A DNA stretch of 64,000 nucleotides from Escherichia phage AV115, in the sequence record OR352945.1; one strand, written 5' to 3'. Positions 41,853 through 43,623 of the stretch are shown here, in pieces. The translations under genes were made by a program, and so were the position numbers. The number at the start of each line of letters is the position of its first letter. Position 1 is the first letter of the stretch. The notes under the pieces are model-generated. The model did not search any database. It was not told where the DNA came from and was given only the letters and a program-made list of their open reading frames with translations.

Positions 41853-42355
41853 TTAGAAATATTTTTTGTATGAATTGATTACATTTTGGTCTACATCATT
41901 ATCAATTTGTGCGACAAGATAAGAACTGATTTCAACTTCCTGAGGAGCTGCTTGAACTAAATCAGAGTTCAGATATTCACGAATCCAAGGATAAGGATGT
42001 TTGGTCGGAGCATCAGTAATTGGACACGGCAAACCACACTGTTTCATACGAGACACAGTCAAGTAATCAACAAAAGCACACATACTCTGTGTATTGATAC
42101 CTGGACATGTACCGTCTTTAAAGAGGTGTGCAGCCCATTCCTTCTCTTGACTATTTACTTCCATAAAAATGTCAACTGCTTCTTGTTCACATTCTTTAGC
42201 AATTTGAACCCACTCATCACCATCAGTACCGGATTGAAGTTGACGGATAATGTACTGAGTACCCTTGAGATGGAGTTGTTCGTCACGAGCAATGAACTTC
42301 ATAATCTTTGCATTGCCTTCCATAATTTCCATATTCTTATGGAAATTAAATGTAC
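41853..42355 (-). CDS. nrdB: ribonucleotide reductase small subunit, exon 2
   Basis: C-terminal NrdB (MEGNAKI..., ARDE..H iron ligands); exon start inferred at 42355 to restore conserved FAC(T)F junction. Confidence 0.8.
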
Positions 42356-42947
42356 CGTTATGTTCGATTGAGCTCGCTAATTCTCAACCCGTTCTCTTAT
42401 GAACTGCTGCATATTACTATGCAGACCAGACTATATCACAATCCCGGAGGGATTCTCCCCATTTCGAGTCGCTTGACCCTACGTCCGAAGACTAGTCGTT
42501 GAACCTTGCTTTGCAATTGTCGCCGTGCCATCGTTTATATGTCGATGGTGATAAATCTTTCTTTTCACAATATGGACAATTCAATTGAATTCTATTTGGA
42601 TTTAATTTGCATCTGTCATTATGTTTTAGATAAAACCCAGGACCTTTACCAATGTGACCGCAGAAATCACATGTGATTTCTTTTTGTGCAGGATGGGTTC
42701 CGTTCTTAACCATTTCTAATGTTTTTGCTGATGTTCTTCCATCAGAATCTTTAGGTATAGGCCCGTTAGCATCCATCCAAATTTTTCTATAATTCAATTG
42801 TGCATCCTCTTAAAAGTATAATCATATTTATTTTATAATATACTAATTAAAGGTGCAAGCAAAACCTTGGCTGCTAGTTTTCCTATAAAGGACTTTCCAG
42901 CAATTAAAGGAGTTTTCGATAAACGTTACCGTTTAAAGGCGCATTTT
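42356..42947 (-). mobile_element. group I self-splicing intron in nrdB
   Basis: ~592 nt interrupting conserved NrdB sequence between YVSFA and MEGNAKI; 5' exon ends in U, intron ends in G; boundaries approximate. Confidence 0.75.
42492..42797 (-). pseudogene. I-TevIII-like homing endonuclease remnant (intron ORF)
   Basis: 101 aa ORF inside intron with TTG start; CxxC...CxxC zinc-finger-like region but no HNH catalytic motif. Confidence 0.5.
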
Positions 42948-43623
42948 ACGCAAAAGATACATAAAAACGAATAGCTTCCAATGCATTGATGACATGCAAA
43001 CAAAGATAAAGAGATTTCATTAGGTCTCGTTTAGCTTCGGTCTCTTGTTTAATAGCTCGGTTTAAACGAAGGTCGGCATCAGGAGATTCTTTAGCTTGTT
43101 CTACAAATTCTTTAGCATTTTCCCAATTACGAGTCTTGACTAGAACATCATCATAATATTTACCTATTGATTCAGCTCGTTTCATGATTGCTTCGTCTAA
43201 TACAATCTCATCAAATACTTTGGATGGATCGGTATAAAGATTTCGCATAATATGAGTATACGAACGAGAGTGAATAGTTTCACTGAATGTCCATGTTGCA
43301 ACCCACGTATCTAATGAAGGGTCGGAAAGCAGTGCCATAAGTACCGCAGATGGGGCCCTGCCTTGGATAGAATCTAATAATGATTGATACTTAAGGTTGT
43401 TTGTAAAGATGTCCTGTTGGAACTGAGGAAGCTTATTGAACTGGGCCGAATCCAGCATCAGGTTTACTTCTTCTGGTCGCCAGAAAAACGACAATTGCTT
43501 TTCAATAAGTTCTTCAAAAACTTTATGTCGCTGAATATCATAACGTGCGAGGCCAAGACCAGAACCAAAGAACATTGGTTCATTCAAAACATCGACTTGT
43601 TGTGTGTTAAAAACTGTACTCAT
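42948..43623 (-). CDS. nrdB: ribonucleotide reductase small subunit, exon 1
   Basis: N-terminal NrdB (...[10 protein letters not shown]); in-frame stop lies within intron. Confidence 0.85.

Follow-up and report, generated by a model that had tools for sequence, protein, structure and literature searches.

The DNA analysed here, called the window below, is a stretch of 64,000 nucleotides (nt) from Escherichia phage AV115 (sequence record OR352945.1). Its minus strand carries nrdB, which is split by a group I intron, and the intron in turn carries an open reading frame (ORF) related to the homing endonuclease I-TevIII. The locus is made up of four features.

43623..42948, minus strand: nrdB exon 1, 676 nt, codons 1-225 and the first base of Cys226, from the ORF list and the sequence
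42947..42356, minus strand: group I intron, 592 nt, beginning AAAAUGCGCC and ending ...CAUAACG
42797..42492, minus strand: remnant I-TevIII ORF, 101 residues, TTG start, in the P6a loop of the intron
42355..41853, minus strand: nrdB exon 2, 503 nt including the stop codon, starting GUACAUUU

An earlier note on this DNA, made from its letters alone, had described a break in the NrdB frame and its resumption downstream. The ORF list and the sequence uphold the break, the resumption and all the coordinates. The ORF of exon 1 opens at 43623 and runs into a TAA at 42948-42946, and the second nrdB ORF (42332..41853, minus strand) has an internal ATG start. Exon 1 ends in ...UUUUGCGU, and T4 and RB3 have the identical junction. 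As proposed, the last base of exon 1 is U and that of the intron is G. Joining 42948 to 42355 gives GCG U|GU ACA, which reads Ala-Cys-Thr, and the spliced product has 392 residues (676 + 503 nt of exon). Over residues 33-335 the joined NrdB gives one unbroken match to Pfam Ribonuc_red_sm (4.7e-38), and its residues 3-388 align with E. coli R2 (8e-127) free of gaps at the junction. The proposed joining thus restores NrdB. Whether the frame is restored was the point on which the proposal could have fallen, and removal of the intron restores it across a conserved R2 segment. The same junction motifs applied to T4 yield a 598-nt intron and a 388-residue product, in agreement with the joined coding sequence (CDS) of the T4 record; in RB3 they yield an intron of 1091 nt.

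The AV115 intron is 97.6% identical to that of T4, 98.1% to that of RB3 and 98.6% to that of JM17. The exons are only 79% identical to T4 and 80-83% to RB3. An intron far better conserved than the exons of its host gene is the pattern expected of an element moving horizontally between phages. Among the 12 alleles compared, the insertion site and both junction sequences are alike in 10, and SG1 and CJY920 differ by one synonymous exon base. About 116 of the 137 matching phage records hold most of the intron, and the other nrdB matches (652 records in total) hold exons only. Judged by these alignments, the AV115 intron is the same element as the nrdB group I intron of T4 and RB3. The whole nrdB region (1771 bases) is 100% identical in Escherichia phages AV109, AV114 and AV116, and 99% identical in AV118; these four are Mosigvirus isolates from Danish pig waste. 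With complete identity to three deposited genomes and an intron 97.6% identical to that of T4, the sequence of the region is no chance pattern.

The Rfam group I model RF00028 matches AV115 at 42407-42644 on the minus strand (E 9.4e-7, 35.9 bits). The gathering cut-off is 50 bits, an operational threshold and no defining property of the RNA. The covariance-model search supports a group I intron by its E value and falls short in its score. A scan of the whole AV115 stretch at the gathering threshold gave no matches, the nrdB and td introns both lying under the cut-off. In the alignment the 3' half is well placed, comprising GUUCAACGACUA, P7, P3', P8, GAUAUAGUCU and P9, and Rfam aligns the R and S elements (GUUCAACGACUA and GAUAUAGUCU) with high posterior probability. 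The model seeks the 5' half inside the intron ORF, and the real 5' half lies upstream of the ORF. The low score is probably due to the 338-nt P6a loop, which with the ORF in it parts the 5' and 3' halves of the core. Natural alleles in which the ORF is missing or shortened all score above 50 bits (CE1 68.6, CJY920 71.7 and SG1 57.9). The CE1 construct differs from the AV115 core at 2 intron positions among 286 columns.

The helices P1-P9.2 (14 helices, 72 pairs) were written out on the AV115 sequence and compared over eight distinct alleles.

42854..42951, minus strand: 5' ribozyme segment, helices read from the sequence
42935-42920, minus strand: P2
42912-42909, minus strand: P3, 5' strand
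42902-42897/42877-42872, minus strand: P4
42892-42881, minus strand: P5
42871-42869 and 42862-42854, minus strand: 5' strands of P6 and P6a, respectively
42356..42515, minus strand: 3' ribozyme segment, conserved elements aligned by Rfam
42515-42506 and 42505-42503, minus strand: P6a' and P6'
42497-42493/42433-42429, 42492-42483 and 42479-42466, minus strand: P7, P7.1 and P7.2
42458-42455 and 42454-42440, minus strand: P3' and P8
42424-42407, 42404-42391 and 42388-42367, minus strand: P9, P9.1 and P9.2

All 72 pairs proposed for AV115 are standard pairs, and 99.7% of the cells are paired across the eight alleles. Compensatory double changes occur at four pairs (P2 has two of them, P5 and P9 one each), and one-sided compatible changes at four others. 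In P9 an A-U pair is changed to G-C and a G-C pair to G.U, the former being compensatory, and P7.2 has a change from G.U to A-U. Six slid controls contained no compensatory changes. The core helices P3, P4, P6, P7 and P8 are invariant in the eight alleles and give no covariation signal either way. P1 is formed by GCGU (42951-42948) and GCGC (42942-42939), with a U.G wobble at the splice site that is also invariant in the eight alleles. The terminal base at the 3' end of the intron is the omega-G, at 42356. Hence the group I intron of about 0.6 kb that had been proposed within nrdB is borne out by a length of 592 nt, by the identity to T4 and RB3, by the RF00028 match, by the helices and by the junction. 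The T4 and RB3 nrdB introns have been described as self-splicing (PMC2988022, PMC1865063). From its near-identity to these two introns we strongly infer that the AV115 intron would self-splice with a guanosine cofactor.

The 3' domain of the intron from P7' to P9.2 (42358..42445, minus strand) has 84-96% identity over 50-88 nt to sequences of unrelated phages, namely Pseudoalteromonas phage pYD6-A, Providencia phage PSTRCR_114, the crAss-like phage cr118_1 and Pectobacterium phage PPWS1. Such matches point to a 3' module common to the group I introns of phages with very different hosts.

The 101-residue ORF in the P6a loop corresponds to residues 1-20 of the 269-residue I-TevIII joined directly, in frame, to its residues 189-269, as revealed by alignment with the proteins of RB3 and of the Mosigvirus JM17. 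Over the retained residues it differs from JM17 I-TevIII by two amino-acid changes. Its last codons and TAG stop overlap P6a', P6', J6/7 and P7/P7.1. No HNH match was found in the 101-residue ORF with Pfam, and full-length JM17 I-TevIII matches HNH_3 at residues 4-48 (6e-13). Codons 21-188, including the HNH domain, are gone, so the remnant cannot cleave DNA. The ORF had been read as an I-TevIII remnant with CxxC pairs and no HNH motif, and the I-TevIII alignment, which matches with an in-frame gap of 168 codons, and the confinement of HNH_3 to the full-length protein agree with this. The word degenerate, which the earlier note applied to it, is right as to the loss of HNH but understates a clean lesion, a single in-frame deletion of 504 nt. 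The TTG start, which the note took as a sign of decay, is no such sign: the intact 269-residue I-TevIII genes of RB3 and JM17 are annotated with this TTG as their start, and there too it follows AAGAGG by 8 nt. The ORF and its leader contain three further elements.

42609..42671, minus strand: zinc finger 1, C43-x2-C46-x12-H59-x3-C63 (C211/C214 in RB3 numbering)
42513..42578, minus strand: zinc finger 2, C74-x2-C77-x13-H91-x3-C95 (C242/C245 in RB3 numbering)
42802..42856, minus strand: ribosome-binding site hairpin, in which the Shine-Dalgarno sequence AAGAGG (42811-42806) is paired with the upstream GCACCUUU

The CX2CX12-13HX3C motif and zinc binding have been shown for RB3 I-TevIII (PMC1865063). 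Fragment 194-269 (194C) is the protease-stable core of the protein (Robbins et al. 2007, PMC1865063); it binds two Zn and dimerises, and does not shift homing-site DNA. Fragment 166-269 (166C) is the minimal DNA binder (PMC1865063). The AV115 remnant keeps residues 189-269 of this minimal domain and has lost 166-188, so the domain is incomplete. On this comparison the remnant is probably unable to bind the homing site. The ribosome-binding site hairpin has a predicted energy of -14.5 kcal/mol (z = -4.2), and the T4 sequence folds alike. Sequestration of the ribosome-binding sites of T4 intron ORFs has been described (PMC2988022).

Compared with I-TevIII of RB3 and JM17, the AV115 deletion takes out 504 nt in frame, that is codons 21-188 (168 codons), and with them the whole HNH catalytic domain together with the linker and some of the region (166-269) that is the minimum for DNA binding. 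The full-length JM17 allele has two copies of the 8-nt direct repeat AAGAACAT, 504 nt apart, which flank the block deleted in AV115, and AV115 has one.

42738-42731, minus strand: deletion scar, the single remaining copy of AAGAACAT

The position of the repeats at the two ends of the deleted block makes slippage or illegitimate recombination between short direct repeats the likely mechanism.

T4 also carries a deletion in the I-TevIII ORF, and the classic report of its defective gene is said to be that of Eddy and Gold in 1991. The T4-type deletion is 491 nt long and out of frame, and its right endpoint differs from that of AV115. The AV115 junction reads GATGG-AAGAACA-TCAGC, and that of T4 reads GATGG-AAGAACATAAGAAAAGAACA-TCAGC; at the right end of the deletion AV115 retains 13 nt less than T4. 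Read from the native TTG, T4 meets a TAA at the junction, and its annotated 97-residue ORF starts at an ATG in another frame. Junction-specific record searches found the exact AV junction in AV109, AV114, AV116 and AV118 only, and the exact T4 junction in 16 records, all of T4, T4T, RB55 or RB59. The exact AV junction had no match among IMG/VR viral contigs. The 101-residue ORF gave four matches in a collection of 5.8 billion proteins, none with the AV junction, a result with little bearing on distribution. Manna, G8, FL18 and FL23 have T4-like junctions, with further decay in FL18 and G8. FL18, whose nrdB region has the same total of 1771 nt as AV115, was considered as the same allele and rejected; it has a decayed T4-type deletion plus other indels.

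The sequences on either side of the deletion also differ between the two lineages. Fifteen columns separate JM17 from T4/Manna, and AV115 has the JM17 state at 13 of them; among these are the P9 pair, the A at the 3' terminus and an insertion of 5 nt ahead of the ORF. The remaining two, one in the P8 loop and one in P9, are T4-like, the latter in a state that S16 also has, so that none of the 15 columns departs from both states. The differing endpoints, the separate sets of records and the 13 of 15 JM17-like columns indicate that the deletion in AV115 is independent of that in T4.

One alternative grants the deletion and makes the 101-residue remnant a working protein, which either forms inactive heterodimers with the I-TevIII of a co-infecting phage, a dominant-negative action against homing, or binds an operator within the intron. 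In favour of this, the deletion preserves the frame exactly and leaves the native TTG, the Shine-Dalgarno sequence and the regulatory hairpin in place. Also retained are the two zinc fingers and residues 194-241, the region to which dimerisation has been mapped, and the double-strand break by I-TevIII requires dimerisation (PMC1865063). An I-TevIII operator has been put forward as putative (PMC2988022). Six substitutions in the remnant are private to AV, found only in four AV phages, and they divide into 4 synonymous and 2 non-synonymous (binomial p ~0.015 against the synonymous-site proportion); these are six changes only, of unfixed timing, and may be older than the deletion. Against a working protein, fragment 194C binds no DNA, and residues 166-188 of the minimal binder are deleted in AV115. 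About one third of random deletions are in frame. Remnants of the T4 type decay, with frameshifts in FL18, G8 and the metagenomic protein P0001, and deletions of the whole ORF exist in CE1 and CJY920. The AV deletion allele is limited to one small clade of four isolates. A working remnant is thus quite unlikely. That it is expressed late, and then either pairs with full-length I-TevIII in a dominant-negative way or serves as a small regulator that binds DNA or RNA, seems improbable too; if it were so, the AV lineage would have domesticated half a homing endonuclease instead of simply losing one.

That AV115 has the T4 allele itself is excluded by the junction alignment and the junction-specific searches. 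A related possibility is that the classic T4 deletion was inherited by or transferred to the AV lineage, perhaps with a second deletion of 13 nt. The left deletion region (...GATTCTGATGGAAGAAC) is common to the AV115 and T4 alleles, removal of a further 13 nt from the T4 type gives the exact AV junction with the frame restored, and T4-type alleles do occur in Mosigvirus (FL18). However, the flanks of AV115 agree with JM17 at 13 of the 15 columns that distinguish JM17 from T4/Manna, and a single deletion in a JM17-like parent makes a simpler history than two deletions together with recombination. Descent from the T4 allele is therefore very unlikely.

The last alternative, that nothing is spliced and nrdB is broken or split, its halves being translated separately or left as a pseudogene, can draw on the records of AV109, AV118, JM17 and FL18, annotated with two separate 'beta subunit' CDS, and on the AV115 Rfam score below the cut-off, but it has next to no credibility, since the second CDS as annotated, from an internal ATG, would be missing residues 226-233, the 592 nt between the two halves share 97.6% identity with the T4 intron, described as self-splicing, and have an intact P1-P9.2 core with compensatory changes, the junction restores a perfectly conserved R2 segment, and the RB3 and T4 records annotate the homologous nrdB as a joined CDS.

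The explanation we favour, with a probability of about 0.93, is a Mosigvirus nrdB with the known self-splicing intron, in which I-TevIII was lost to an in-frame deletion of 504 nt of its own, independent of that of T4. In this model the pre-mRNA would fold into the P1-P9.2 core, as the near-identity to T4 and RB3 implies. Guanosine would attack after the U at 42948, at the U.G wobble of P1, and the exons would be ligated after the terminal G at 42356 to give the mRNA for the 392-residue NrdB. The P6a loop of the intron would formerly have encoded the HNH homing endonuclease I-TevIII, until a single in-frame deletion of 504 nt, likely by slippage or illegitimate recombination between the AAGAACAT repeats, left the 101-residue ORF with its native TTG, Shine-Dalgarno sequence, ribosome-binding site hairpin, both zinc fingers and dimerisation region.

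Several points weigh against this explanation. Splicing in AV115 is deduced from the near-identity to T4 and RB3. The RF00028 score, 35.9 bits, is below the gathering cut-off of 50. Most core pairs are invariant, and the covariation comes from four pairs in the peripheral helices P2, P5 and P9. In the remnant the frame is unbroken and the signals for translation are in place, and of the six private substitutions four are synonymous, which leaves a small chance of some residual function. Finally, the junction alone is compatible with a two-step origin, a T4-type deletion of 491 nt and then one of 13 nt between AAGAACA repeats, against which the flanking polymorphisms are the sole argument.

That nrdB has an intron and that I-TevIII activity is lost through deletion has been textbook matter since 1986-1991. 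The nrdB group I intron of AV115 with its defunct I-TevIII is an already known, ordinary element. Literature searches turned up discussion of the T4 and RB3 alleles of the nrdB intron only. What AV115 adds is a second, independent, in-frame deletion of the HNH domain in a wild Mosigvirus.

In T4 the gene for MobE lies between nrdA and nrdB, and MobE mobilises the defective nrdB intron in trans (PMC2790892). The gene mobE occupies that place in T4 and RB3 and is absent from the corresponding spacer of AV115 (55 nt). By the gene content seen here, the AV115 nrdB intron is most likely immobile. It is most likely a splicing-competent, non-autonomous passenger, at what would be the endonuclease-loss stage of the homing cycle.

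Other putative homing elements lie nearby. A free-standing ORF of 215 residues (46583..45936, minus strand), about 3 kb from the intron, overlaps the start codon of nrdA by 8 nt. By eye it has an HNH-like motif, for which Pfam gives no HNH match; it also has a NUMOD3 motif and weakly matches the DNA-binding domain of I-TevI, and its probable identity is a mob-type homing endonuclease. A group I intron also splits td, the thymidylate synthase gene (48779..46903, minus strand), between the exon ORFs 48779..48228 and 47217..46903.

about 48227..47218, minus strand: td intron, ~1 kb

The ORF of the td intron (48105..47362) is full length and I-TevI-like, with GIY-YIG, I-TevI zinc-finger and I-TevI DNA-binding domains. 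The Rfam group I score of the td intron is 36.2 bits (47263-47493), under the cut-off apparently for the same reason as in the nrdB intron.

In the records of AV109, AV114, AV116 and AV118, nrdB is given as two genes with no intron, and the HNH-less remnant is labelled 'homing endonuclease'. Both annotations are misleading, and the significance of the present results is mostly for annotation. The AV118 record starts the remnant at an ATG created by the substitution I8M. In the record of CE1, nrdB exon 2 is mis-annotated as 'major capsid protein'.

The gene order around nrdB in AV115 is that of the T4 family. Two features lie upstream of it.

45943..43679, minus strand: nrdA
43678..43624: spacer between nrdA and nrdB, 55 nt

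Downstream of nrdB are a GIY-YIG protein of 136 residues (denA-like) and then RNA ligase 1. A hairpin, GGGAC-UUCG-GUCCC, with a U-rich tract (41835..41848, minus strand) stands directly 3' of the nrdB stop codon, ahead of the denA-like gene, and resembles an intrinsic terminator or a hairpin that stabilises RNA. A scan for sigma-70 promoters found no excess over the shuffled expectation, T4 middle and late promoters being outside its scope. Over 4.77 kb, AV115 and AV118 show about 30 differences, all within a patch of ~335 nt (about 43486..43819) that covers the 3' end of nrdA, the spacer and the first 138 nt of nrdB. The patch takes in the region of nrdB nicked by MobE in T2 (codon 42). Within otherwise identical genomes, the patch resembles a gene-conversion tract.

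Exon 2 of JM17 is T4/RB3-like over its first ~25 nt (GTACCTTTAACTTCCATAAGAAC) and Mosigvirus-like thereafter. This start is the signature of a co-conversion tract, as would be left by intron homing. The corresponding sequence of AV115 (42330..42355) is GTACATTTAATTTCCATAAGAAT, and its first 15 nt match Salmonella phage S16.

The closest comparison for AV115 is the nrdB intron of T4 (NC_000866, 598 nt). It has the same insertion site (…UUUUGCGU|AAAAUGCGCC … ACG|GUAC), the same P1-P9.2 architecture with the ORF in the P6a loop, and the same combination of a deleted HNH domain and two retained zinc fingers. The two phages differ in that T4 has mobE between nrdA and nrdB, where AV115 has only the 55-nt spacer. 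The nrdB introns of RB3 and JM17 (about 1091-1096 nt) encode the intact 269-residue I-TevIII and have the TTG start and the Shine-Dalgarno sequence in common with AV115. RB3 I-TevIII has an HNH domain, cleaves intronless nrdB as a dimer and promotes homing (PMC1865063), an activity that AV115 is without. The td intron, like the nrdB intron, is a phage group I intron with an endonuclease ORF looped out of the core, and the 3' cores of the two are homologous (72% over 102 nt). It differs in its host gene, thymidylate synthase, and in its endonuclease, which is of the GIY-YIG type and full length in AV115.

Introns with the ORF wholly or partly deleted are present in Escherichia phages CE1 (304 nt) and CJY920 (309 nt), both ORF-less, and in Salmonella phage SG1 (420 nt), partly deleted. 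In CE1 and CJY920 the deletion lies at ACAATTG repeats and removes the ORF precisely; in SG1 the junction is at an AGAT repeat. CE1 and CJY920 share the ACAATTG deletion and have different P2 and P5 sequences, which implies recombination or recurrence. These three introns have the same insertion site and the same ribozyme core as that of AV115. They differ in having lost all or most of the ORF and in scoring above the Rfam cut-off, whereas AV115 keeps an intact frame of 101 residues. Taken together, the alleles indicate at least four separate losses of the endonuclease gene, each through a deletion of its own that spared the ribozyme. The T4-type, SG1-type, ORF-less and AV alleles thus represent repeated loss of I-TevIII via deletions at short direct repeats, as the life cycle of homing endonucleases predicts.

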